Shown one piece after another: positions 3,511-62,579 of a stretch of DNA of 64,000 nucleotides; position 1 is the stretch's first letter; the number at the start of each line of letters is the position of its first letter. The notes beneath the pieces were generated by a model, which had not been told where the DNA came from, ran no database searches, and worked only from the letters and a program-made list of their open reading frames with translations. The stretch spans positions 9,238,001 through 9,302,000 of the forward strand of contig JBHGNT010000004.1 in the NCBI GenBank assembly GCA_043228905.1, written 5' to 3'. This DNA is from Azolla caroliniana (Eukaryota; Plantae; Polypodiophyta). The position numbers and the translations under genes are program-made.

Positions 3511-4626
3511 TGTCGTGAAGATCCGTCACTACGCGCGGATCGTGAGGCAGAACCGCCAGGGTTCTGGACCGGAAGGATTCGACGTTGGCACAAGCTTTAG
3601 CGAGAAAGGAATTAAGATAGATTGAAAGAGAGAGAGATTGAGAAAAGATAGAACGCTTGATTTTAGATTGAGAGAGAGATTAAGAACTCTTGACTTTAGA
3701 TTTCAGAAACAAGTTACACGATCAATTCGATAACGAATTTTCTTCTTCTTAATTTCATAACTAAAAGAGCCTAACCCTTCTTCTTTTTCATCCCCCTCTT
3801 TTATAGATGCTCTCATGCATATGATGCATGTGAGGGTACAAGACATGCATAAAATGCATGTTTTCCATTTGGCGCTCATGTATTACATGTGGTGCATAAT
3901 AACCATATCACTCATTTTAGCTCACATGTATAAGAATTTACATGTAAAAAAGTACAATTATAGAAATAAAAATTCAACTAAATGTTATGGCTTAGTGGTA
4001 AGCCTACTAACTCTTAACTAGAAGGTTTGAATCCATACTTGCACTCCTTGTGTATATATATATATGTATACATATATTTATTTATTTATATATATATCTA
4101 TCCGGTCGCCGGATGCCGGATGACGCCGGTTCGCCAGATGCCGGTTGCCGCCGATTATCGTCAATTGCCAGATGTCGTCGGTTACCGTCGGTTACCGGCA
4201 TCCAGTTCCGTTACCGTTCGTCCGGTTTTGGTTGGGCAAAACCTTTGCAAGTAGCTAGGCCACACCCATTCATCCAATAGCTTAGTTCAAGTCACCTTGA
4301 ACTCTCTATGCTCCACACATAGACACAAAGATAATAGCTTTTGCTCTACCTTATATATGGTGAGATCCTTATTTCCTGTCTATGTGGGATATCTCACAGT
4401 TTTATTTTTCTCTTCTTCCTTCTCATACTTCACTCCCACATAACTTGTCACTTAGATGTCCGTTTCTTATGTAGTAAAGTGCATCTCTTCAAGATCTTCG
4501 TCTTTTGTACTAAGATATTAAACTTACTTAGAATCAGTATATTCACTATTATTGTTTTATATGATTGACACTTGATTTCGTATGTCTTATGTAATTTTCA
4601 CACCATTGCCGAAAATCTTCACGACA
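3511..4626 (-). repeat. LTR of element A
   Basis: TG...CA ends with an 11-bp terminal inverted repeat; near-identical to the LTR at 32755-34271 in opposite orientation. Confidence 0.92.
3982..4044 (+). promoter_or_regulatory. tRNA-derived Pol III-type module (A box and B box) in the LTR of A, antisense to the element
   Basis: A box TGGCTTAGTGG 3988-3998; ACTCTTAAC anticodon-loop-like segment; B box GGTTTGAATCC 4024-4034. Confidence 0.62.
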
Positions 4627-10348: not shown

Positions 10349-11454
10349 TGTCGTGACGTGGCTCGTCCAAAAGCGTAGCATTGTGTGGACAAAAGATATC
10401 ATGAAGGTGAGGAAGGAATCACTAGGATTATGGACGGAAGGGATGAAAGAGTAGAGGTAGAGTAAATAGAGATCAACAAGATATGACAAGATAGGATATA
10501 GAATGATATTTGACAGAATAAAAGAAATTTATAATTATTTCGTGAAAGAGTTACAAAATGGTTACGAGCGTCGTTGAACCTTCGATCTTTGTTTCATAAG
10601 GTAATCGCTCTTCTCTTTCTTGATAGTAAGCCACATCAATCTTCACTTCAATATTTCGATGAAGATAAGAATCAAGATAAGAATCTAACCCCCGCCCTTT
10701 CGTTGTGAGTTGAGCACCACAAACATCAAGCTAGCTCTTCTCTTGTCATTTCTTCTTCTGTTGCTCTTTCTATCTTATGATATCTCTTATGTAATATAAC
10801 TCTATTTGATTCTCTTGATATATCATCCAATATAGTTCTTCGAGTTCAATTCCTTCGATATCCCTTGTGGCCCTACTCCCTTCTCCTTTTATAGGGGAGA
10901 GATGGTTGTACATGTGGGCCATGTGGCGCACATGCAGAGAGAACTTTGCATGTGTGCTATATGGTGCACATGTAGTACATTCCATGGTTTAAACCATACA
11001 ATACTACTTCAAATAAAACAACACATATATTTTATATGCATTACAAGTAAATGCTAAATGGTAAGGTTTAAATGTCATATTAAGGTTGGGGTTGTTGGTT
11101 CAAGTCCTCTTTTGCCCATGCAATATGCTATATGGTGTGCATGTAGTATATTACATGGTTTAGACTATAGAATAGTACTTCAAATAAAACAATGCATATA
11201 ATGTAAATTATCAGTATATGCTAAATGGTAAGGTTTGAGTGTCATAAGGTGGGGTTATTGGCTCAATTCTTCTCTCGTCCATGTAACATAACATATACAT
11301 TATTTTATTTGCCTCTACATATAATGTTTAATATTATCATAGTGTGTTCTTAATATTATCTTTATGTATAAAATATTATCAAGATTTATTTTATTTTAGT
11401 TACGTATTTATCTTATTGTAGACTTTTAATGTGAAGCTTTTGTACTTCACGACA
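10349..11454 (-). repeat. 3' LTR of element B
   Basis: TGTCGTGA...TCACGACA ends; adjacent PPT (minus strand AGAGGGGGTGGA); contains a diverged tandem duplication of about 170 bp at 10955-11284. Confidence 0.88.
11051..11270 (+). promoter_or_regulatory. Two degenerate tRNA-like A/B-box modules in the LTR of B, antisense to the element
   Basis: ATGCTAAATGGTAAGG at 11051 with GGTTCAAGTCC 11097-11107; second copy at 11218 with GGCTCAATTCT 11260-11270. Confidence 0.5.
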
Positions 11455-19411: not shown

Positions 19412-20157
19412 TGTGAAAGTGTTTTTAGAATCTAAGCCATTGAACATTAGGAGAATATAAAGTATAGATAATTCACCTTTTGAGGATAAGAACACGAACT
19501 AAGACCTTAGGGAAGAAGTCAAAAGTAAAAGTACGAGACCAAGAGAAAAGTAAAAAGAGAAAACGCAGACTATAAAAAACAGTAAAAATAGAATGGTCAT
19601 AACTCCCTCGTTGTTTATCCAAATATCACGTTTAAATATGGATTAGAAAGCTTGTAAAAAGAGCTTTCTATAGCTTTTTAAATCGCTTAATTTGGATTTC
19701 GGATGAGGGAGATATGACGATTAGAAGGTTGATGTGTCATAGCTAAAAATAGGGAGATAAAAAGCTTCTAAAAATAGCATGAACGTGGATAAGAAGAGGA
19801 AGGTTATAAAAGAAGAAGTAATATGAGTGAGAGGGGGAAAGAGTGAAGGCCAAAGAGTGGATGAGGAGTGTTAGGAAGAAGTGTCTTTGTGGAAGAGGAA
19901 GTGTCTTAGAAGAGGAAGGTCTTTGGTTTTAGTTCAATGTGGAGTTTGTCTCCTTTGTATTCTCTTGATGTTGGAATATCAGAACATTCTTATTTCTTGC
20001 TCGCTTTCTCTATCTTTTTTCTTAGTTTCTTGAGTTATACTCTCTAATCATAATTACCTAGAGCTATATAATATATTATGATTTTCAACTCCATCTAATC
20101 GGTTTGGTCAAGCCCTCATATAGTGTATAACTATCTATTATCTTATACACCCTATCA
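19412..20157 (+). repeat. LTR1 of element P
   Basis: TGTGAAAG...CCTATCA; by eye differs from LTR2 and LTR3 at one base (19623, A vs C). Confidence 0.95.
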
Positions 20158-20160
20158 TTT

Positions 20161-20177
20161 TGGCGCTCCAGGGAGGG
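20161..20177 (+). promoter_or_regulatory. Primer binding site of P, probably tRNA-Asn type (second copy 23357-23373)
   Basis: TGGCGCTCCAGGGAGGG 3 nt after the LTR; resembles the Asn-type PBS TGGCGCTAGAAGGAGGG. Confidence 0.6.
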
Positions 20178-20244
20178 CCGATCCTTTCCGTATAGGAAGA
20201 GAAGTTATCATTTAATTGTGTTACTATATTACATTAACTTAGCT

Positions 20245-22329
20245 ATGCAATTTGCATTTTCGGGTGAAAGAACACAAGATGCTGGTGCCTTTTTGGCATG
20301 CTTTGAGCATCATGCCATATCTATTGGACGCATCACCGACAACGAAAAGTTGCCCTTGTTGGTAGCTACATTCTATGGTCGTGCTCGAGATTGGTATGAC
20401 TCTCTTCCGCAAAATGAACAAGGAGAATATCAATTATTGGTGCATCAATTTCGTACAAGATATATTCAATGGAAAAGTGCAACTGAGGTAAGGGAGGAGC
20501 TTTTTCAACTAAAGATGGAATCACCTTTTGGTTTTTTAGAGTATGAACGAAATTTCCAAGAATTGTGGACGACGTGGATTCGTCTTCGTGGTGGCACCGA
20601 AGACGAGTGGTTTAAGATAGAACAATTTAAGGTGGGCCTTGATATGCATTTCCGTTTGGAGGCAAGCTTGAAGGATCCAACGACTTTTCAAGCTCTTCTC
20701 CAAGTTTGTCAAGATTATGATCGACAAGTGAAGATGATGAGTTCCATGGGGGATCCCCAAATGACGGCTTTGGGTGCAAATTTGATGCCTCGTGCCAACT
20801 TTCAAGCCTCATCTTCAATTGTGCATGGGGGACAAGTGTTTCCAAATGTGTATACCACCACAACAATAAACCCAACAAGTATATCCCAAGAAGTTGAACA
20901 AGTGAAGAGTGAACAAGATACAATGGCGTTGGTGAATCGGCGCTTTGATGAAGTGATGGCCCACTTGCAACAATCCCAAGCAATTCGCAACACTATTCCC
21001 GATGGTGGTGGCTCTAGAGGGCATCAAGGTGTAATTTGTTATTCTTGTCAAGAGGAGAGACACATCTCAACAAGATGTCCTCATCGACAACAAAGAGGTA
21101 TGGAAAGAGACATGTATGAAGTGCAACGGAATGGACAACGACCTATCAACAATGGAGTCGAAGGAGGCGAATCCATAACACTTCCAATGACTCAGGTTCC
21201 TACAATTCCTCATAATGTGAATCTTCTTAATTTTATTGATGATAGTGATAGTGCTTGTGAAGTAGCTCTTGTGAAAAGGACAAGAGCCTCGCAAAAGGAG
21301 AAAGAAGTTGAAGGAGAATCTAGTGACTCAAGACAAAAGAAGAAGTCTAAGGAGAATGAGAAAGAGGACAAATTGAGAAGGAGACACTCTAGAAGGAAGA
21401 TAAAGATGGAGGATATTCCTATGGGAGAAGGTGTAGAATCTTTCAATCGGAAGCATGAATTGATATCGAGTGGACCAAGGATAACATGGCCGCAACTTCT
21501 CCAATTATCATCCACATTACAAAATGAGTGGGGGAGGCTTGTGAGTATTTGCCAAAGTCAAAAGACCGTGCATTACGTGGGGATCATGCGAGTAGAAGAT
21601 CGAAAGGACATACGTCCAATCATCCCTGTCTCCATCAAAGGGGTTCACATCAAAGATGCCTTGGGTGATAGTGGTGCTAGGGTAAGCTTGATTTCTGAAT
21701 TTGTAGTAAACAAAGTAGGAATTCCTATTAGTAGGTCATCTTCAACAAGGGTGGTTGTAGTAGATAGTGGAGTGGTGCATTGCACAAGCATAGTGGAGGA
21801 TGTGTTCATCAAGTGTTTTGGAATAAGAGGAGAAGCTTGCAACAAATACCACATCAACTTGAAGGAAAGTGTATCAATTTCCCCAAAGCTTCGGCAATTG
21901 AGTGTTGAACAAAAGGAAGAATTTATGCAAGAGTTCAACGCATGGTTACAAGAAAGTTCCAATTATAAGATGGAAGATTTGAGGTGTGTGTCACCTATAG
22001 TTTTGGTTCCAAAGAAGAATGAGATCAATTTCAAAGCCTTGAATGATTCGACCAAACGAGATGAATTTTCACTTCCTTCTCGAGATGAGATTGTCGATAA
22101 AATGGTTGTTTATACAAAACAAGGTAGTGTGGACAATATGTTGTGCCAAAAAGGATTTCATGTGGATGATTCAAAGATTAACATAATTACAAAGATGACA
22201 ATTCCGACAAGTCTTGAAGCTTTGAAAGTATTTGTGCAAAAGGTGCGCTCGCTCGAAAGATTCATTTATATGTTGACATGCTTACTGCTATCAAGAGTGA
22301 TGTATCCCATGGCCCTACTAGTCTTTTGA
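20245..22329 (+). CDS. Intact Gag - CCHC zinc knuckle - aspartic protease - truncated RT fusion (694 aa from the first ATG)
   Basis: Capsid-like FSGERTQDAGAFL and RARDWYDSLP; CYSCQEERHISTRC; ALGDSGARVSLI; RT N-terminus SPIVLVPKKN...ALNDSTKRDEFSLP joined to thumb-like GFHVDDSKI...RFI. No YxDD, RNase H or integrase. Confidence 0.85.
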   Translation: MQFAFSGERTQDAGAFLACFEHHAISIGRITDNEKLPLLVATFYGRARDWYDSLPQNEQGEYQLLVHQFRTRYIQWKSATEVREELFQLKMESPFGFLEYERNFQELWTTWIRLRGGTEDEWFKIEQFKVGLDMHFRLEASLKDPTTFQALLQVCQDYDRQVKMMSSMGDPQMTALGANLMPRANFQASSSIVHGGQVFPNVYTTTTINPTSISQEVEQVKSEQDTMALVNRRFDEVMAHLQQSQAIRNTIPDGGGSRGHQGVICYSCQEERHISTRCPHRQQRGMERDMYEVQRNGQRPINNGVEGGESITLPMTQVPTIPHNVNLLNFIDDSDSACEVALVKRTRASQKEKEVEGESSDSRQKKKSKENEKEDKLRRRHSRRKIKMEDIPMGEGVESFNRKHELISSGPRITWPQLLQLSSTLQNEWGRLVSICQSQKTVHYVGIMRVEDRKDIRPIIPVSIKGVHIKDALGDSGARVSLISEFVVNKVGIPISRSSSTRVVVVDSGVVHCTSIVEDVFIKCFGIRGEACNKYHINLKESVSISPKLRQLSVEQKEEFMQEFNAWLQESSNYKMEDLRCVSPIVLVPKKNEINFKALNDSTKRDEFSLPSRDEIVDKMVVYTKQGSVDNMLCQKGFHVDDSKINIITKMTIPTSLEALKVFVQKVRSLERFIYMLTCLLLSRVMYPMALLVF

Positions 22330-22591
22330 GCGTTAACGAAGACATAATGATTGTGGTAACCTCTTTCTTTGTGTTGACAAGGAGAAAGATGATGATGGAA
22401 TTGTCAATGTGTGTGTGGGTGTGTCTAGGAGTGTGAGGTTTTTCCTACCGACTAGCGGGGGTTTTACTCACATAGTTTGTTTCTTTTTATTATATCTCTC
22501 TCATTGTCTATAGCCAAGAGATTGGCGAGAGAGCTTTTGTTTGTTAAGTACTGCCAATAAGTGCTTCGCCATAAATGGCTTAGCCTCTAAC

Positions 22592-22607
22592 AAGGGGGAG
22601 GGCTAAA
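22592..22607 (+). promoter_or_regulatory. Polypurine tract of P (second copy 25788-25803)
   Basis: AAGGGGGAGGGCTAAA immediately before the LTR TG. Confidence 0.85.
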
Positions 22608-23353
22608 TGTGAAAGTGTTTTTAGAATCTAAGCCATTGAACATTAGGAGAATATAAAGTATAGATAATTCACCTTTTGAGGATAAGAACACGAACTAAGA
22701 CCTTAGGGAAGAAGTCAAAAGTAAAAGTACGAGACCAAGAGAAAAGTAAAAAGAGAAAACGCAGACTATAAAAAACAGTAAAAATAGAATGGTCATAACT
22801 CCCTCGTTGTTTATCCAACTATCACGTTTAAATATGGATTAGAAAGCTTGTAAAAAGAGCTTTCTATAGCTTTTTAAATCGCTTAATTTGGATTTCGGAT
22901 GAGGGAGATATGACGATTAGAAGGTTGATGTGTCATAGCTAAAAATAGGGAGATAAAAAGCTTCTAAAAATAGCATGAACGTGGATAAGAAGAGGAAGGT
23001 TATAAAAGAAGAAGTAATATGAGTGAGAGGGGGAAAGAGTGAAGGCCAAAGAGTGGATGAGGAGTGTTAGGAAGAAGTGTCTTTGTGGAAGAGGAAGTGT
23101 CTTAGAAGAGGAAGGTCTTTGGTTTTAGTTCAATGTGGAGTTTGTCTCCTTTGTATTCTCTTGATGTTGGAATATCAGAACATTCTTATTTCTTGCTCGC
23201 TTTCTCTATCTTTTTTCTTAGTTTCTTGAGTTATACTCTCTAATCATAATTACCTAGAGCTATATAATATATTATGATTTTCAACTCCATCTAATCGGTT
23301 TGGTCAAGCCCTCATATAGTGTATAACTATCTATTATCTTATACACCCTATCA
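22608..23353 (+). repeat. LTR2 (shared, central) of element P
   Basis: Preceded by a PPT and followed by a PBS. Confidence 0.95.
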
Positions 23354-23440
23354 TTTTGGCGCTCCAGGGAGGGCCGATCCTTTCCGTATAGGAAGAGAAG
23401 TTATCATTTAATTGTGTTACTATATTACATTAACTTAGCT

Positions 23441-25525
23441 ATGCAATTTGCATTTTCGGGTGAAAGAACACAAGATGCTGGTGCCTTTTTGGCATGCTTT
23501 GAGCATCATGCCATATCTATTGGACGCATCACCGACAACGAAAAGTTGCCCTTGTTGGTAGCTACATTCTATGGTCGTGCTCGAGATTGGTATGACTCTC
23601 TTCCGCAAAATGAACAAGGAGAATATCAATTATTGGTGCATCAATTTCGTACAAGATATATTCAATGGAAAAGTGCAACTGAGGTAAGGGAGGAGCTTTT
23701 TCAACTAAAGATGGAATCACCTTTTGGTTTTTTAGAGTATGAACGAAATTTCCAAGAATTGTGGACGACGTGGATTCGTCTTCGTGGTGGCACCGAAGAC
23801 GAGTGGTTTAAGATAGAACAATTTAAGGTGGGCCTTGATATGCATTTCCGTTTGGAGGCAAGCTTGAAGGATCCAACGACTTTTCAAGCTCTTCTCCAAG
23901 TTTGTCAAGATTATGATCGACAAGTGAAGATGATGAGTTCCATGGGGGATCCCCAAATGACGGCTTTGGGTGCAAATTTGATGCCTCGTGCCAACTTTCA
24001 AGCCTCATCTTCAATTGTGCATGGGGGACAAGTGTTTCCAAATGTGTATACCACCACAACAATAAACCCAACAAGTATATCCCAAGAAGTTGAACAAGTG
24101 AAGAGTGAACAAGATACAATGGCGTTGGTGAATCGGCGCTTTGATGAAGTGATGGCCCACTTGCAACAATCCCAAGCAATTCGCAACACTATTCCCGATG
24201 GTGGTGGCTCTAGAGGGCATCAAGGTGTAATTTGTTATTCTTGTCAAGAGGAGAGACACATCTCAACAAGATGTCCTCATCGACAACAAAGAGGTATGGA
24301 AAGAGACATGTATGAAGTGCAACGGAATGGACAACGACCTATCAACAATGGAGTCGAAGGAGGCGAATCCATAACACTTCCAATGACTCAGGTTCCTACA
24401 ATTCCTCATAATGTGAATCTTCTTAATTTTATTGATGATAGTGATAGTGCTTGTGAAGTAGCTCTTGTGAAAAGGACAAGAGCCTCGCAAAAGGAGAAAG
24501 AAGTTGAAGGAGAATCTAGTGACTCAAGACAAAAGAAGAAGTCTAAGGAGAATGAGAAAGAGGACAAATTGAGAAGGAGACACTCTAGAAGGAAGATAAA
24601 GATGGAGGATATTCCTATGGGAGAAGGTGTAGAATCTTTCAATCGGAAGCATGAATTGATATCGAGTGGACCAAGGATAACATGGCCGCAACTTCTCCAA
24701 TTATCATCCACATTACAAAATGAGTGGGGGAGGCTTGTGAGTATTTGCCAAAGTCAAAAGACCGTGCATTACGTGGGGATCATGCGAGTAGAAGATCGAA
24801 AGGACATACGTCCAATCATCCCTGTCTCCATCAAAGGGGTTCACATCAAAGATGCCTTGGGTGATAGTGGTGCTAGGGTAAGCTTGATTTCTGAATTTGT
24901 AGTAAACAAAGTAGGAATTCCTATTAGTAGGTCATCTTCAACAAGGGTGGTTGTAGTAGATAGTGGAGTGGTGCATTGCACAAGCATAGTGGAGGATGTG
25001 TTCATCAAGTGTTTTGGAATAAGAGGAGAAGCTTGCAACAAATACCACATCAACTTGAAGGAAAGTGTATCAATTTCCCCAAAGCTTCGGCAATTGAGTG
25101 TTGAACAAAAGGAAGAATTTATGCAAGAGTTCAACGCATGGTTACAAGAAAGTTCCAATTATAAGATGGAAGATTTGAGGTGTGTGTCACCTATAGTTTT
25201 GGTTCCAAAGAAGAATGAGATCAATTTCAAAGCCTTGAATGATTCGACCAAACGAGATGAATTTTCACTTCCTTCTCGAGATGAGATTGTCGATAAAATG
25301 GTTGTTTATACAAAACAAGGTAGTGTGGACAATATGTTGTGCCAAAAAGGATTTCATGTGGATGATTCAAAGATTAACATAATTACAAAGATGACAATTC
25401 CGACAAGTCTTGAAGCTTTGAAAGTATTTGTGCAAAAGGTGCGCTCGCTCGAAAGATTCATTTATATGTTGACATGCTTACTGCTATCAAGAGTGATGTA
25501 TCCCATGGCCCTACTAGTCTTTTGA
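23441..25525 (+). CDS. Second identical copy of the Gag-PR-truncated RT ORF
   Basis: Translation identical to 20245..22329 in the ORF track. Confidence 0.85.
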   Translation: MQFAFSGERTQDAGAFLACFEHHAISIGRITDNEKLPLLVATFYGRARDWYDSLPQNEQGEYQLLVHQFRTRYIQWKSATEVREELFQLKMESPFGFLEYERNFQELWTTWIRLRGGTEDEWFKIEQFKVGLDMHFRLEASLKDPTTFQALLQVCQDYDRQVKMMSSMGDPQMTALGANLMPRANFQASSSIVHGGQVFPNVYTTTTINPTSISQEVEQVKSEQDTMALVNRRFDEVMAHLQQSQAIRNTIPDGGGSRGHQGVICYSCQEERHISTRCPHRQQRGMERDMYEVQRNGQRPINNGVEGGESITLPMTQVPTIPHNVNLLNFIDDSDSACEVALVKRTRASQKEKEVEGESSDSRQKKKSKENEKEDKLRRRHSRRKIKMEDIPMGEGVESFNRKHELISSGPRITWPQLLQLSSTLQNEWGRLVSICQSQKTVHYVGIMRVEDRKDIRPIIPVSIKGVHIKDALGDSGARVSLISEFVVNKVGIPISRSSSTRVVVVDSGVVHCTSIVEDVFIKCFGIRGEACNKYHINLKESVSISPKLRQLSVEQKEEFMQEFNAWLQESSNYKMEDLRCVSPIVLVPKKNEINFKALNDSTKRDEFSLPSRDEIVDKMVVYTKQGSVDNMLCQKGFHVDDSKINIITKMTIPTSLEALKVFVQKVRSLERFIYMLTCLLLSRVMYPMALLVF

Positions 25526-25803
25526 GCGTTAACGAAGACATAATGATTGTGGTAACCTCTTTCTTTGTGTTGACAAGGAGAAAGATGATGATGGAATTGT
25601 CAATGTGTGTGTGGGTGTGTCTAGGAGTGTGAGGTTTTTCCTACCGACTAGCGGGGGTTTTACTCACATAGTTTGTTTCTTTTTATTATATCTCTCTCAT
25701 TGTCTATAGCCAAGAGATTGGCGAGAGAGCTTTTGTTTGTTAAGTACTGCCAATAAGTGCTTCGCCATAAATGGCTTAGCCTCTAACAAGGGGGAGGGCT
25801 AAA

Positions 25804-26549
25804 TGTGAAAGTGTTTTTAGAATCTAAGCCATTGAACATTAGGAGAATATAAAGTATAGATAATTCACCTTTTGAGGATAAGAACACGAACTAAGACCTT
25901 AGGGAAGAAGTCAAAAGTAAAAGTACGAGACCAAGAGAAAAGTAAAAAGAGAAAACGCAGACTATAAAAAACAGTAAAAATAGAATGGTCATAACTCCCT
26001 CGTTGTTTATCCAACTATCACGTTTAAATATGGATTAGAAAGCTTGTAAAAAGAGCTTTCTATAGCTTTTTAAATCGCTTAATTTGGATTTCGGATGAGG
26101 GAGATATGACGATTAGAAGGTTGATGTGTCATAGCTAAAAATAGGGAGATAAAAAGCTTCTAAAAATAGCATGAACGTGGATAAGAAGAGGAAGGTTATA
26201 AAAGAAGAAGTAATATGAGTGAGAGGGGGAAAGAGTGAAGGCCAAAGAGTGGATGAGGAGTGTTAGGAAGAAGTGTCTTTGTGGAAGAGGAAGTGTCTTA
26301 GAAGAGGAAGGTCTTTGGTTTTAGTTCAATGTGGAGTTTGTCTCCTTTGTATTCTCTTGATGTTGGAATATCAGAACATTCTTATTTCTTGCTCGCTTTC
26401 TCTATCTTTTTTCTTAGTTTCTTGAGTTATACTCTCTAATCATAATTACCTAGAGCTATATAATATATTATGATTTTCAACTCCATCTAATCGGTTTGGT
26501 CAAGCCCTCATATAGTGTATAACTATCTATTATCTTATACACCCTATCA
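25804..26549 (+). repeat. LTR3 of element P
   Basis: Followed by TSD TTGAG and resumption of the Copia E RT. Confidence 0.95.
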
Positions 26550-27752
26550 TTGAGGAAGTAGTGGAGCTCCTTCATGTCCATCATCTCGAATTTGTCGGAA
26601 AGGAGGGATTTGACCTTATTGATTTCGACGAGATGCTCACCTCCAATGACTAGGTCATCCATATATATGATGATGACAATTGGACTTGCGGAATCGCTTC
26701 GTATGTAAAGGGAGTTGTCTGATTTTGACATACGGAAGTCGATTTGATGAAGATATTGCGTTATCTTCGAATGCCAAGCACGCGGTGCTTGCTTGAGGCC
26801 GTAGAGTGGCTTCTTGAGTTGGCATATAACTTTTGGATGGGTGCTCGAGTTGAAGCCAGGTGGTTGTATCATGTACACCTCCTCTTCTAATTCACCTTGT
26901 AGAAAGGCATTCTTCATGTCCATTTGATGGAGGTGCCACCCTCTCGCCGCGGCAAGCACAATTATGGTCCGAAGAGGTCTACGAGGATACATTTCTCCGA
27001 CTTCGGGTCAAGCTTTTGATGCTTCTCATCGGGAATGTGCACGTATGCTATTGCGCCAAAATATCTGGGTGTGTGATAAGTCCGGCTTCTTTCCGAAGTA
27101 TTTTTCGCCAGATGTTGTGCACCGGTTCATTAGGTAGACGACCGTATTTGCAGCTTCGACCCAATATGACTTGGGCATATGCTTCTCGTTCATCATGGCC
27201 CGTGCTACTTCGAGGATGTGCCGATTTTTGCGCTCGGCTACTCCGTTTTGTTGCGGAGTGTGTCGGCAAGTGAATTCTCGCCGAATTCCTTCCTTTCGGA
27301 GATACGCCGTGAAATCGTCTAAGAAGTACTCCTTGCCGCCATTCGATCGAAGGCATCGTAATGTCGGCCCGTGGCTTTCTCGACTTCATTCTTGAAATTT
27401 TAGAAGTGTCCGAACACTTCGCTCTTTTGCCGCCTCGGGTAGATCCAAGTGTGCCTAGAAAAGTCGTCGATGAAGAGCACGTAATATCGGCATCCGCCGA
27501 ATGTAGCCGTCTGCGCCGGTCCCCATACGACGAAATGGACTATGTTGAGTAGACCTTTGCTCACGTTCCTCTCTTTCGGGAATGGGTGTCGGTGTTGCTT
27601 GCCGAATTGGCACGCTTCGCATACACCTTCAATCTCCTTCTCTTTGAATGTTGGGAGTCCGATGACGAATCCTTTCGATTTCATTGCTTTGAGCTTTAGG
27701 AGATTTATATGTCCAATCCGCTTGTGCCATAACTCTATGTCAGAGTCAGCTT

Positions 27753-32200: not shown

Positions 32201-33103
32201 GAGACCATCACACCACATGCATCGAAGTCTAAATGGTTCCCTTGACCTTGAAGTCTAACCATTCTCAAGCTTTGCCACTTTAATTGTTTAATCTTTCATA
32301 CTTTGTACTAAATCATCAAGCAAAGACTCACTCTTAGTTTCGATCATTTCTCGTGGTTGATGGACCATTTTGTGTGATGGTTTTCGACCAAGTCTTTGAA
32401 CTTCAATGTTTTGCTCAAGTCGATTTGTGATTCCCACATGTCGTATTTGTAGCATTGCACCATTCCTTTGCATTCTTTTCATAAATTTATTAAAAGCATT
32501 TGTTACCCCATTCCAATTTGCAGTTATACCATCCTCGGTATTTGGTACTTCAAGCATAAATTCCAATTCTTTTCTATATCTCTTGTCAACTGCCTACAAA
32601 AATAAAGCCATATTTTACCAAGACAAAGAATTTCTTTCTTTTGGCTTTAATTGTCCATACAATCTATCAAACTCTTTTTTCATGTCAACTACAGCTAATG
32701 CTTTATTTTCTTTTATGTCAACTACAGATAGTAACGCGAGAGAAATCTTCACGGTGTCGTGAAGATTTTCGGCTATGGTGTGAAAATTACATAAGACGTA
32801 CGAAATCAAGTGTCAATCATATAAAACAATAATATTGAATATACTGATTCTAAGTAAGTTTAATATCTTAGTACAAAAGACGAAGATCTTGAAGAGATGC
32901 ACTTTACTACATAAGAAACAGACATCTAAGTGACAAGTTATGTGGTAGTGAAGTATGAGAAGGAAGAAGAGAAAAATAAAACTGTGAGATATCCCACAAC
33001 TAAGCTATTGGATGAATGGGTGTGGCCTAGCTACTTGCAAAGGTTTTGCCCAACCAAAACCGGACCGACAACGTAACCGGGACCCGGTGACCGAACAGTA
33101 ACC

Positions 33104-33972
33104 AACATCCGGCAATGGAACCGGCATCCAACGACCAAATGGTAACCGGCATCCGGCATCTAGGGACGGAACCGGGATCCGGCGACCGACGGTAACTGGA
33201 GGCATCCGGCAATCGATGATAACCGGCGGCAACCGGCATCCGACAACCGGATAGATATATAAATAAATATATATATATATGTATACACAAAGAGTGCAAG
33301 TGTGGATTCGAACCTTGCACCTCCTAGTTAAGAGTTAATAGGCTTACCACTAAGCCATAACATTTAGTTGAATTTTTATTTCTATCATTGTACTTTTACA
33401 TGTAAATTCTCATACATGAGAGCTAAAATGAGTGACATGGTTATCATGCACCACATGTAATACATGAGCGCCAAATGGCAAACATGCATTTTATGCATGT
33501 CTTGTACCCTCACATGCATCATATGCATGAGAGGGTACAACGAACATCCGGCAATGGAACCGGCATCCAACGAGCAAATGGTAACCGGCATCCGGCATCT
33601 AGCGACGGAACCGGGATCCGGCGACCGACGGTAACTGGAGGCATCCGGCAATCGATGATAACCGGCGGCAACCGGCATCCGACAACCGGATAGATATATA
33701 AATAAATATATATATATATGTATACACAAAGAGTGCAAGTGTGGATTCGAACCTTGCACCTCCTAGTTAAGAGTTAATAGGCTTACCACTAAGCCATAAC
33801 ATTTAGTTGAATTTTTATTTCTATCATTGTACTTTTACATGTAAATTCTCATACATGAGAGCTAAAATGAGTGACATGGTTATCATGCACCACATGTAAT
33901 ACATGAGCGCCAAATGGCAAACATGCATTTTATGCATGTCTTGTACCCTCACATGCATCATATGCATGAGAG
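33104..33972. repeat. Tandem duplication (period 439 bp) inside the LTR of F
   Basis: 33104-33533 repeated at 33543-33972 with a 9-nt junction GGTACAACG. Confidence 0.92.
33294..33363 (-). promoter_or_regulatory. tRNA-derived module with consensus A and B boxes in the LTR of F (second copy 33733-33802)
   Basis: Minus strand TGGCTTAGTGG TAAGCC TATTAACTCTTAACTAGGAGGTGCAA GGTTCGAATCC. Confidence 0.72.
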
Positions 33973-36352
33973 CATCTATAAAAGAGGGGGATGAAAAAGA
34001 AGAATGGTTAGGCTCTTTTGGTTATGAAATTAAGAAGAAGAAAATTCGTTATCGAATTGATTGTGTAACTTGTTTCTGAAATCTAAAGTCAAGAGTTCTT
34101 AATCTCTCTCTCAATCTAAAATCAAGCGTTCTATCTTTTCTCAATCTCTCTCTCTTTCAATCTATCTTAATTCCTTTCTCGCTAAAGCTTGTGCCAACGT
34201 CGAATCCTTCCGGTCCAGAACCGCGGCGGTTCTGCCTCACGATCCGCGCGTAGTGACGGATCTTCACGACATAATTAAGTGGTGAACCTGACGTGAAAGA
34301 GACGGTAGGAAGGATCAAGCCGAGATTAATACTTGGAGATGGCGTCCTCAAGGAACCAAGCAGGAGAGCTTGAAAGGATGATGGTAATTGTCGAAGAGTT
34401 CTTAATCTCTCTCTCAATCTAAAATCAAGAGTTCTATCTTTTCTCAATCTATCTTAATTCCTTTCTCGCTAAAGCTTGTGCCAATGTTGAATCCTTCCGG
34501 TTCAGAACCCCGGCGGTTCCGCCTCACGATCCGTGCGTAGTGACGGATCTTCATGACAACAAGAATATTCAAACACAAGTGCTTCTTTGAATGCATTCCA
34601 ATCCAAACTATGCAATGCTTGTATTTAACGAATTCCATCTCCACTAATTTATAAAAGTTTGCTATCATATTGACATCATTCAGACAAGACATTTCCATTT
34701 CATCATAATATATAGTGACATACTTTGAAATATTTGTGCCATCAAACACACCAATCTTCTTTTGGACTTCTCGTAAGGCATGAAATAATTGATCTTGATT
34801 CAATTTTTCAATAAATAACCTTACCGGTTCCATTGTACTCATACTTTCCATGTTGATGCGGATCTTTACTTTAGATGTCTCTTCTACTTCCTCGTTTCAC
34901 GTCGGGTTCACCAAATTGTGTCGTGATGTGGCTCGCCCAGAAGCGTAGCATTGCATACACAAAAGATATCGTGGAAGTGAGGGGAATCACTAGGATTATG
35001 GACGGAAAGGACGAAAGAGTAGAGATAGAGTAGGGAGTCGACGCAACCACAGTGGAGCAATTGTTGAAGGAGATGGAGAATCTGAAAATCGCAATGGTGA
35101 AGAAGATAGAAGACCGTCCCACAAGTTCCAAGTACATGGACCGTCGATGCATATGGTGCGATAGCACCGAACATGATCGGAGAGATTGCGACGAGCACAA
35201 GGAGGCGTTACAACGTGATCTTATCTACTACGAGGGAAATCGGATCCATTCGATGGACTCTCGGAAGCCACTCCGACCGAACTTCCGAAAAGGCGGCATG
35301 AAGAAGGTCCTAGAGGAGGAGATCGCGGCGAAAAACAACTATGCGACAACCACGGGAATACGTGTGGGGGAGTCATCTAGAGCAAATGCGTCTTTTTGGC
35401 CGGAAGTGCTAGAAATTTCGAAGAAAGCCGACCATGATGAAATCCGAAGCACTGCGGAATGTATCCGGGAAGCTATGGGATGAGAGTGCCCCATAGATAA
35501 GAATAGCGTACATGCGCTATGTCAATTGCATGAAGTGTATGTGGATGAAAAACGAAGGCGCACGGATGATGCGGTCGGACCATCAAAGGTGTCGGAGAGC
35601 TAGAACTCTGAAGGGAAGGGGAAAGGAAAAACAATTCCGGCATTCAAACTCACCTCGGACATCGAACAACAGACGGACCTAAAGAAGGTGTTTGAAGAGA
35701 GAATCCTTGATAGCCAGGTGGAATTTTCGCTTCGGGAATTACTCAGAATAGCGAAGAAGGAGTTCCGCGACCTTCTTGTGGATCTCGTGAAGAGAAAAAG
35801 ACAAACTACGGAGGAGAACGCTCCAAGGGTAAATCTGAACACGATTTTAATGAATGACACCGAAGTGGAGGACGAAATTCTGAACTCCCACTACACAAGG
35901 CCACATTGGGCACGTGCAACTACGAAGACTCTGGTCCGAATCGACACCATCAAAGAGCCCGTGCTAGCATTGATTGATCACGGATCGCAAATCAATTTGA
36001 TATCCAAGGAGTAATACCGGAAGGGGAAGTGGCCTATAAATACTAACCATGGATGGAAGATCCAGGCAGCCACTAAAGCAATGGAAGATCTATTTGCAGC
36101 TTGTCCGAATGTGACAGTGAAGATCGGGGATGTCGAGATTGAGCAAATTTTCTTCGTACAAGATGAGGTCTCACATTCCGTGATCCTCAGGCAACCCTTT
36201 ATCACGGCTTCACGGATGGAGACAAAGATGCTTGATAGCGGTACGGCTTTTGCACGAATTCGGAGCCAAAATGGAGGGAAATCCGTCCAATTCCTAACTG
36301 TGCCGGCAAATCATGAAAGGAACAAGAGAGAGCTCTTGTCCCAAACAAGGAT

Positions 36353-39935: not shown

Positions 39936-40751
39936 TGTCGTAGTGTCATTCGCACACTACGTGAAAATTGCATTTTTGTCCCTCTGGATGGAATCGGTAA
40001 GGAGGAACCGGTGAGAACCGGATGAAGGATGGAATCGGTAAGGAGGAACCGGTGAGAACCGGATGAAGGATGGAATCGGCAAGGAGGAACCGGTAAGGAG
40101 ACCCGGTAAGAACGGGATCAAGCAAAACTGGCAAGAGCCGGATAAAGAAGGCCGGTGAGAGTCTCTCACCGGATGAAGACACAAATTTGTAAATAAAAGA
40201 AAAGATTGTTACATGCATAGGGCAAGATTCGAACCCTATACCTCCTTGTTAACGATTTTTAAGCCTTACCACTATACTAGCATATTATAAATTGTAAAGT
40301 TATACTAAACTTTATCCCATGTAAATATTCTAGATATGCATGGTACAAAAAGTTATTCATGCATACATACTCGAGTTAAAAGATGGCATACGTACTAAAG
40401 TTAGGAAAAGCATGATGTTTGCATGTGATAAACTTAGACTCTTCGAACACTATATAAGGAAGAGAGAAAGATGTATAGGGGTTGTTGATTTTTATAAGGT
40501 TTGAATAATATAAAATAATCGTGGGATTCACGATTTTACCATCTATTTCTCTCTTACAATCTAAGTATCAATTAATACACTATACTCGTGGGATTCACGA
40601 GTTTCATATCTTCTTCTTGCAATCTCTTCCTAACTAACATTATCTCATATTCTTCTTTCTCCTAGCCCAAAACCCCAACGGTTCCCACCCAACTCATGCA
40701 AACGATCCAGCGCCGAAAGGCACGAAAACATTGTCGTGAAGGATTACGACC
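39936..40751 (+). repeat. 3' LTR of C, with a 41-bp tandem repeat (39986 to about 40095) and an antisense tRNA-like module (40213-40285)
   Basis: TGTCGTAG...TTACGAC ends; minus strand TAGTATAGTGG...ATCGTTAAC...GGTTCGAATCT; TATA box at about 40451. Confidence 0.82.
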
Positions 40752-61110: not shown

Positions 61111-61134
61111 AGTGTCATGAATACATAAACATCA

Positions 61135-61203
61135 TGGCTTCACCTGGGCTTGAACCCAAGACCTTGAAATACATAATCAAGAACCTAACCATTAAGATAA
61201 CCT
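61135..61203 (-). promoter_or_regulatory. Antisense tRNA-derived module at the 5' edge of LTR N
   Basis: Minus strand TATCTTAATGG...CTTGA-loop-TCAAG...GGTCTTGGGTTCAAGCCCAGGTGAAGCCA. Confidence 0.62.
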
Positions 61204-61263
61204 ATGATCATATAAGATGATAAAAGCTACTTCTTATAATACACTGATTATGGTAAATACTCT

Positions 61264-61283
61264 GGAACATTCTAGAACATTCT
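61264..61283 (+). promoter_or_regulatory. Heat-shock element (4 alternating nGAAn units) upstream of the TATA box in LTR N
   Basis: GAA CA TTC TA GAA CA TTC; TATAAATA at 61293-61300. Confidence 0.75.
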
Positions 61284-62029
61284 ATAGGAACCTATAAATA
61301 TAGACATGTACAATTCTTCTCAAACCAATTCGAATCAACACTAGTCTTAAGCTCTCATCAGCTATCTCGTATCCATTCTCATTCTATCTAATACATTCAT
61401 TCTTCTCTTATCATTTCATTCCTCTCTTCTTGTGATCTCTTTATATCTTTCTTCTGTCACTCTATCTTTCTCTTGGTTCTGACAGTTTGATTCGAATTCA
61501 TCTCTCTCTCCTTTATCCTCGTCTATAAACATCATGAAACCATGGTTGCCATCAACTTAGAAGAATATCTCACCCTTGTTGCAAAAGTGGAGAATCTTAA
61601 ATCCAAATTTGCATCTCTTGCATTAGAGAATCAACGTCTTCTTGGATATCCACAAAAGGTTACTATGGAGAAACAACAACAACAAGAGGAGTTTACGTGA
61701 CGGGTGCAACAATTAGAATCGACAATCGTAGTTTTACAACAACATAGGGTCGAACGTCAAGGAATTATCAAGGAGCCGAAAATCAGCCTCCCAACTAAAT
61801 TTGAAGGTTTGAGGGGGAATTTCCGAGGTTTCTTGAATCAAGTGAGGTTGGTAATTCAAATGCATCCCACACGTTATGCGACAGATGCATCACGAGTCGG
61901 GTTAGTGGGCACCTTATTGATTGGCATAGCGTTGTCATGGTTTTCTCCATTACTAGAGACAAACTCTCCTCTACTGCATAGTTTCGAGGAGTTTAAAGCT
62001 TGCTTTCGAGATACAAATTGTCATGATAT

Positions 62030-62092
62030 GGCAATACTCGAACCCATGACCTTATGTTACATGGGTCGAGCTCTTGACCATTAGACTATTTG
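62030..62092 (-). promoter_or_regulatory. Antisense tRNA-derived module at the 5' edge of LTR O
   Basis: Minus strand A box TAGTCTAATGG (62078-62088) and B-box-like GGTTCGAGTAT (62034-62044). Confidence 0.58.
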
Positions 62093-62163
62093 CTGTAATA
62101 CAAAGGATATTATTTTCATTTAAGTTTTACTATAGAAAATTGACATATATTCCAGATTTCTCT

Positions 62164-62183
62164 GGAACATTCTAGAAACTTCA
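62164..62183 (+). promoter_or_regulatory. Heat-shock element (4 units) in LTR O
   Basis: GAA CA TTC TA GAA AC TTC; TATAAG at about 62203. Confidence 0.75.
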
Positions 62184-62579
62184 GGAGTACTCCTGAGAAA
62201 ACTATAAGAGGTACAAGGAATTATTTCGAGCCAAATTGGTTCAACGCCAGTCTTAAGCCTCCTCTAACTACTATTGTATATTCTCTTAACATAATATATA
62301 TCTTTTGTTATCATCATTCTCTCTCTCGATCTCTCGATCTCACTCACTCTTTCCTTCTCTCGAGAGTTCTACACCTCCCTTAGTACTAATCCTCATCTTT
62401 TAGTACTAATTCTTTATGTGTCTTAGTATTGTTCTCTATCTTAGTACTGCTCCTGACAGTACTTCTCTTAGTACTGCTCTTGACAATTTGAACCGATTTT
62501 GCTCTCCTTCCTTCTCTTCCTTTATCTTCTTACTTCCCTCCCTTCATACTAATCTCTTATTAATCTTTTCTCTCATACT

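Follow-up and report, generated by a model that had tools for sequence, protein, structure and literature searches.

Outward-facing tRNA-type A-box/B-box modules in the U3 of Ty3-type LTRs of Azolla caroliniana, with a possible role in keeping the Pol II promoter of the element open

Several retroelements are known to carry RNA polymerase III (Pol III) promoters in their long terminal repeats (LTRs), among them three short elements without coding capacity, Helenus, Ajax, and Cassandra (PMC10886601). The initial annotation of the locus described here had named Cassandra as precedent, but Helenus is the nearer one: Helenus TRIMs/TRIMp3 have a tRNA-derived LTR part in which boxes A and B are conserved without a tRNA function, as against the 5S-type promoter of Cassandra (Kojima 2024, PMC10886601). 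A SINE insertion into the LTR has been proposed as the origin of this part, and the sole plant Helenus reported in the accessible text of that paper comes from Selaginella (PMC10886601). Foamy viruses, in turn, are autonomous retroelements with A/B-box Pol III units in the U3, which are dispensable for replication in culture (PMC3993851). Outside of LTRs, tRNA genes and TFIIIC sites of yeast act as chromatin barriers, and an active tRNA gene can also silence an adjacent Pol II promoter (PMC1635290). Whereas Pol III promoters in LTRs are thus already known, their outward arrangement in coding plant elements was not found described in the literature searched, which left subscription journals and Repbase annotations outside its scope; nor did it include a plant demonstration of barrier activity by a Pol III unit. 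The accessible text of a Tcn1 survey makes no mention of such modules (PMC2864245), and the word 'tRNA' is absent from that of a paper on the transposable elements of P. patens (PMC7466625).

The window analysed here, the whole stretch of 64,000 bases, lies on contig C4 of an assembly of 523 Mb and forms a nest of LTR retrotransposons. Modules were searched for with an A-box/B-box position-weight scanner whose training set consisted of 23 genuine tRNA genes of this assembly and nothing else. The scanner recovers seven of the eight segments listed in the initial annotation at 19-34 bits, plus one 15-bit match, and ten shuffles of the window gave 0.5 matches at or above 18 bits and 0.1 at or above 20 bits. 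All listed segments were confirmed at their places, antisense to the element and 5' of the TATA box (Table 1), with the qualification that, of the two copies proposed for LTR B, the second is weak. The statement that the modules are antisense in every case has to be restricted to the U3, because sense modules occur 3' of the TATA box in F and in B. Other Phygy-type LTRs combine two antisense U3 modules with one sense module past the TATA box, all of them facing away from it.

Table 1. Coordinates of the LTRs, tRNA-like modules, and associated signals in the window
Feature	Position	Strand	Remarks
LTR of element F (Phygy-type)	32755..34271	+	10-base terminal inverted repeat; internal 439-base tandem duplication
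tRNA-like A-box/B-box module in F, copy 1	33294..33363	-	U3 antisense; 34.1 bits
tRNA-like A-box/B-box module in F, copy 2	33733..33802	-	From the tandem duplication; U3 antisense; 34.1 bits
TATA box of F LTR	33977..33983	+	Predicted core promoter for Pol II; no variation among 28 LTRs of the family
Decayed sense tRNA-like module, 3' of F TATA box	34041..34105	+	Both boxes broken
F primer binding site, complementary to tRNA-Trp 3' end	34280..34296	+	One mismatch to this genome's own tRNA-Trp
Element A LTR, of one family with F	3511..4626	-	Trp primer binding site and gag/pol remnants after it
Module in A	3982..4044	+	Antisense to element; 27.3 bits
Pair of degenerate modules within LTR B (minus strand, 10349-11454)	11051..11270	+	11051-11107: 19.2 bits; 11217-11270: 13.5 bits
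Weak sense module 3' of LTR B TATA box	10680..10733	-	15.1 bits, reachable by shuffles
Module in the 3' LTR (39936 to about 40727) of element C	40213..40285	-	31.1 bits; T4 run after it
Module near 5' end of LTR N (61113-61484)	61135..61203	-	Tcn1-type, self-priming; 28.5 bits
Module at 5' end of LTR O (62019-62485)	62030..62092	-	Tcn1-type; 26.3 bits

These modules have the layout of a type 2 Pol III promoter, with A and B boxes at tRNA spacing: the distance between the boxes is 34-36 in 46 of 52 matches, where the scanner permits 27-42. The A module has lost 7 bases between its boxes (28 versus 35). The A box lies 181 bases from the TATA box in F (copy 2), 174 in C, 116 in O, and 94 in N. 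A function as tRNA is ruled out, since ARAGORN finds no tRNA at the window modules, Rfam gives no tRNA match there at E values up to 10, and the cloverleaf stems are not kept; with relaxed settings, ARAGORN returned noise and missed the modules. An origin from tRNA-Lys(CUU), as the loop of the F module would suggest, was also rejected: the family copies mostly read otherwise, and tRNA-Arg(UCU) scores best (62-66 versus 58) in a comparison with 22 tRNA types, an incomplete set.

In element F, the left flank of the LTR is ACGG, of the NCGN type, and both antisense modules go back to a single 439-base tandem duplication within one LTR; in copy 1, the A box starts at 33357 and the B box extends to 33304. 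The module region is also duplicated nearby on contig C4. The sense module reaches an alignment score of 74 (versus 41 +/- 4.4 in 300 shuffles) and is homologous to a higher-scoring sense module at the genomic locus L202. The gag of F ends about 100 bases past the primer binding site (PBS), followed by a 3' piece of an LTR (34394-34558). The U3 spacer of Phygy-type LTRs contains CATGCA repeats, which we take to be an RY-like motif, with five at 33802-33975 and three at 40285-40452. In P. patens, RLG2 is ABA-induced (PMC7466625).

Elsewhere in the window, O sits inserted in the gag of N, and some 15 bases separate its B box from the end of the LTR. The module-to-TATA stretches of these two LTRs hold three GAA/TTC units each (61260-61292 and 62160-62190), arrays that are presumably heat-shock-element-like. 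Element C has no 5' LTR of its own, and at 34880-35032 an inverted B-type LTR end with a Trp PBS is fused directly to the C gag; at 40732 there is a putative module-less Phygy LTR, based on a 20-base match only. A gag-only Ty3 tandem array (19412-26551) has three 748-base LTRs, 99.9% identical, with a period of 3196 bases, and no module was found in these LTRs. The window elements recur three to four times on contig C4 at about 9.2-9.9 Mb with 97-100% identity, which reflects either recent duplication of the segment or an artefact of the assembly.

The carriers belong to two types of Ty3 elements. To the Phygy type, non-chromovirus Ty3, we assign A, B, C, and F by their traits. Phygy elements are characterized by a tRNA-Trp PBS in 81%, a 4-base NCGN target duplication, the lack of a chromodomain, and a length of 7.7-10 kb (PMC6317226). 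In A and F, the Trp PBS is present and pairs with the genome's own tRNA-Trp; NCGN stands to the left of 19 of 21 LTRs of the A type and 22 of 25 of the C type, and ACGG flanks both sides of locus L199. A tblastn search for a chromodomain with a single query, a weak test, gave no match in the 3' ends of B, of C, or in the window. N and O are chromoviruses of the Tcn1 type, assigned by traits (self-priming and a chromodomain-like end). Both are cut off in the window, so the chromodomain was read from relatives: a chromodomain-like stretch was recognized by eye in locus L214 and matched in six O-type elements. The self-primer of N (61487-61498) has a 12-base complement inside the LTR at 61327-61338, while self-priming in O and L214 was judged by eye, a scripted search giving no exact 9-mer for O. 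Tcn1-type LTRs have their B box 5-52 bases from the LTR end. Between the two types, pol identity is 27-28% (L191 versus L135 and L173), and together with the Trp PBS and the self-priming features this matches the two distant lineages, Trp-primed and Tcn1-like, that had been proposed. Along a part of its length, the C integrase is up to 85-90% identical to metagenome relatives, its closest named relatives being proteins of the liverwort Riccia (47%) and the fern Ceratopteris. Coding carriers exist, such as the 5.3 kb gag-pol element L214, whose LTRs are 98% identical, as well as L191 and L135. Short C-type Phygy derivatives were also observed (L199:493-3608 and L191:163-3805), of 3.1-3.6 kb and with one ORF without Pfam match; judging from their 99% identical LTRs, they are recent non-autonomous elements.

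The abundance of the modules was estimated in a genome sample of 1 Mb, made of one hundred 10-kb stretches at fixed positions on 21 contigs, which yielded 88 matches at or above 20 bits versus 3-4 in reversed or shuffled controls. At or above 18 bits there are 100 matches, of which 21 are tRNA genes. The other 79, classed by homology and by eye, comprise 44 antisense in the U3 of LTRs, none in sense in the U3, and four in sense after the TATA box; to these are added seven matches that lie within a SINE, 14 that are decayed genes of tRNA clusters, and 10 without class (6-8 in the controls). The orientation in the U3 is thus non-random, and extrapolation from about 44 modules per Mb, in a sample that may lean repeat-rich, gives around 20,000 copies genome-wide.

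Within families, the module is a fixed part of the LTR and not a chance SINE insertion, as seen in LTRs picked without regard to it: it is present in 25 of 30 A-type LTRs (the first 30 of 404 exact LTR-PBS junctions), in 26 of 30 C-type LTRs (the first 30 of 988), and in 24 of 30 O-type LTRs taken from the best 30 gag matches, where several of the misses are truncated or marginally below threshold. Chromodomain-anchored 3' ends carry it in nine of 11 cases, six of them family O, and the Trp-primed junctions of the 1 Mb sample in nine of 21. In metagenome data, among the matches listed (80 of 122 stretches), an antisense module occurs in 10 of the 60 junctions with 700 bases upstream and a sense match in three of these same 60; the best matches of the module-bearing LTRs to host LTRs are 69-83% alike over long alignments. 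No module was found in 10 distant chromovirus-like contigs (35-44% pol identity), and a search for modules in a prokaryote collection returned nothing. Contigs of three runs, of which X1 is probably DNA, cover the B box of the C module and the modules of N and O.

Selection on the boxes was addressed by comparing divergence between subfamilies at 13 box positions fixed beforehand from the tRNA consensus, leaving out of the analysis the family search that had been queried with the module. In family C (25 of 30 LTRs, after removal of one near-duplicate and four that lack a whole module), box divergence is 0.072, whereas the other module positions reach 0.254, the spacer 0.273, and R/U5 0.286 (P <=0.0006, where this and the following P values assume independent columns and ignore shared descent). 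In family A (25 of 30 LTRs, excluding five truncated or rearranged copies, plus three metagenome LTRs), it is 0.088, as compared with 0.235 at the other module positions (P 0.0003), 0.165 between module and TATA box (P 0.07), and 0.215 for R/U5 (P 0.02); relative to the spacer, better preservation of the A boxes and B boxes is not clear in this family. Locus L356, in which a rearrangement interrupts the module, was dropped; with it kept in, the test gave 0.213 for the boxes versus 0.374 (P 0.00025). The boxes therefore diverge about 3-4 times slower than the rest of the module in the Phygy families A/F and C. Family O (31 LTRs) has a box divergence of 0.21, not significantly different from the 0.15-0.23 elsewhere, and its A box drifts in the 5' half. 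The initial description of boxes kept while flanks are not is consequently borne out in A/F and C, but not measurably in O.

As to where the modules come from, their interiors vary between families, with scores mostly of 35-65, the level of unrelated tRNA-like pairs, and somewhat higher for A/F with C and for N with L135. One Tcn1-type family has a module that matches the head of a free SINE (107-124 versus 40 +/- 5), an element roughly 200 bases long that has an A-rich tail and sits in (GA)n. Divergent interiors and this SINE-head match would fit more than one capture from SINEs, and we consider it likely that the modules were captured from the heads of SINEs or tRNA genes. The free SINE (L226:6355-6580; L409-L428) shows a target duplication in L415 and has a second, inverted tRNA-like module that faces the first, with 1759 first-look candidates. 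The genome also contains tandem arrays of tRNA-Trp-like genes (C8:17.80-17.82 Mb and C16:4.99-5.11 Mb) and similar single-isotype tRNA clusters for Lys, Ile, Arg, Phe, and Glu.

Our main reading, to which we give a probability of roughly one half, is that of an accessory tRNA-type cassette in the U3 which faces away from the TATA box, likely binds TFIIIC, and helps keep the Pol II promoter open. The module would recruit TFIIIC, as a candidate binding site, TFIIIB would sit between the module and the TATA box, and the Pol II promoter of the element would be kept open at the edge of silent chromatin. On this reading the module acts as DNA, and it is neither a tRNA nor needed for retrotransposition; it is dispensable, since a Phygy family of 579 copies lacks it. 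More tentative is the broader view that two distant Ty3 lineages repeatedly recruited SINE or tRNA heads as outward Pol III units bounding their own Pol II promoter, which would make these LTRs self-insulating and, at roughly 20,000 copies, a principal source of TFIIIC sites in the genome.

Other explanations have to be weighed against this proposal. The selected product might instead be a short outward Pol III RNA, acting as decoy, small-RNA source, or antisense regulator, comparable to the U3 cassettes of foamy viruses, which we hold to be unlikely. Such an RNA would agree with both boxes being kept at tRNA spacing, with the T4 run that lies 20-36 bases past the B box in 26 of 26 family C copies, with the mean folding z of -3.5 in A modules, and with a shifted hairpin around the B box, common to A and C and partly kept where the tRNA stems are not, in which two varying pairs of C change on both sides. 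However, the first T4 run is 10-341 bases away in A and falls outside the LTR in O, the B box of L214 abuts the LTR end, interiors diverge, the C modules fold with a z of -0.8, and the strand of the C hairpin is ambiguous (15% G-U versus 14% A-C). The classical T and D stems are not kept in C and there is no fixed terminator in A and O, which indicates selection at the DNA level. Pairing of the antisense tRNA sequence in the element RNA with the primer or another packaged tRNA, aiding strand transfer, has precedents in the bipartite PBS of Ty3 and the tRNA-Lys3-like sequence in the U3-R of HIV-1. The module in the element RNA is indeed complementary to tRNAs, tRNA-Trp ranking second of 14 for F and one A copy, but for two C modules it ranks 13th and eighth of 14, the best match of A/F is tRNA-Arg(UCU), modules are also present in self-priming elements without a tRNA primer, and sense modules are unable to pair in this way, all of which makes this explanation very improbable.

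Equally to be considered are neutral relics of SINE or tRNA insertions, spread by LTR copying, with the inward ones lost for disturbing the Pol II promoter. This account draws on the fact that module-less families amplify too, the Phygy family with complete module-less LTRs having 579 exact LTR-PBS junctions versus 404 for A and 988 for C. It also draws on the patchy distribution of the module over the gag tree (57 of 116 rows, the other 59 having a short or no gag match), where it needs at least eight changes and LTR types form mosaics with gag types, on the missing box signal in O, on the existence of a free SINE donor, and on the 'not a few' Repbase LTRs that contain tRNA pieces, mentioned without analysis by Kojima (PMC10886601). 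We regard it as doubtful, since conservation in A and C is specific to the boxes. In single copies the CpG of the B box decays, and the box-breaking C56T change (4/25, 6/26, and 3/25 copies) is nowhere the majority form among the multi-copy subfamilies of these two families, whereas the sense module of family A, F included, has lost its boxes throughout in the same LTRs. Moreover, Met-primed LTRs have no module of their own: among the 59 Met-PBS matches of the sample, a module lies within 1.3 kb of two, both times in adjoining C- or O-type LTRs.

If the proposed role of the U3 module as a boundary of the Pol II promoter is true, it would give autonomous retrotransposons a novel means of remaining expressed in silent chromatin via the tRNA transcription machinery of the host, reached repeatedly. 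About 44 modules per Mb in the sample could shape TFIIIC occupancy genome-wide, and the module-bearing and module-less sister families in one genome offer a natural test of TFIIIC barriers in plants.

Among the known systems, the tRNA-gene and TFIIIC barriers of yeast have the same activity as proposed here, although these are host loci assayed in yeast and not borne by LTRs (PMC1635290), whereas in Azolla the barrier role is a proposal. Cassandra TRIMs share a Pol III promoter fixed in the LTR and their occurrence in land plants, but this promoter is of the 5S type, and the elements are non-autonomous and have the element itself transcribed from it (PMC10886601). The cassettes of foamy viruses differ in that they have been shown to yield microRNAs and have terminators (PMC3993851), while the modules described here are known from sequence. 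Helenus, the closest of these systems, is non-coding and 311-1263 bases long, in contrast to the carriers found here, some of which are coding and have a TATA box, and its tRNA part lies in sense near the LTR 3' end in the supplement consensuses, as opposed to the antisense module in the U3 (PMC10886601). Finally, the Helenus promoter is proposed to drive the transcript of its own element (PMC10886601), whereas here the modules of the U3 point out of it, 44 in antisense and none in sense.
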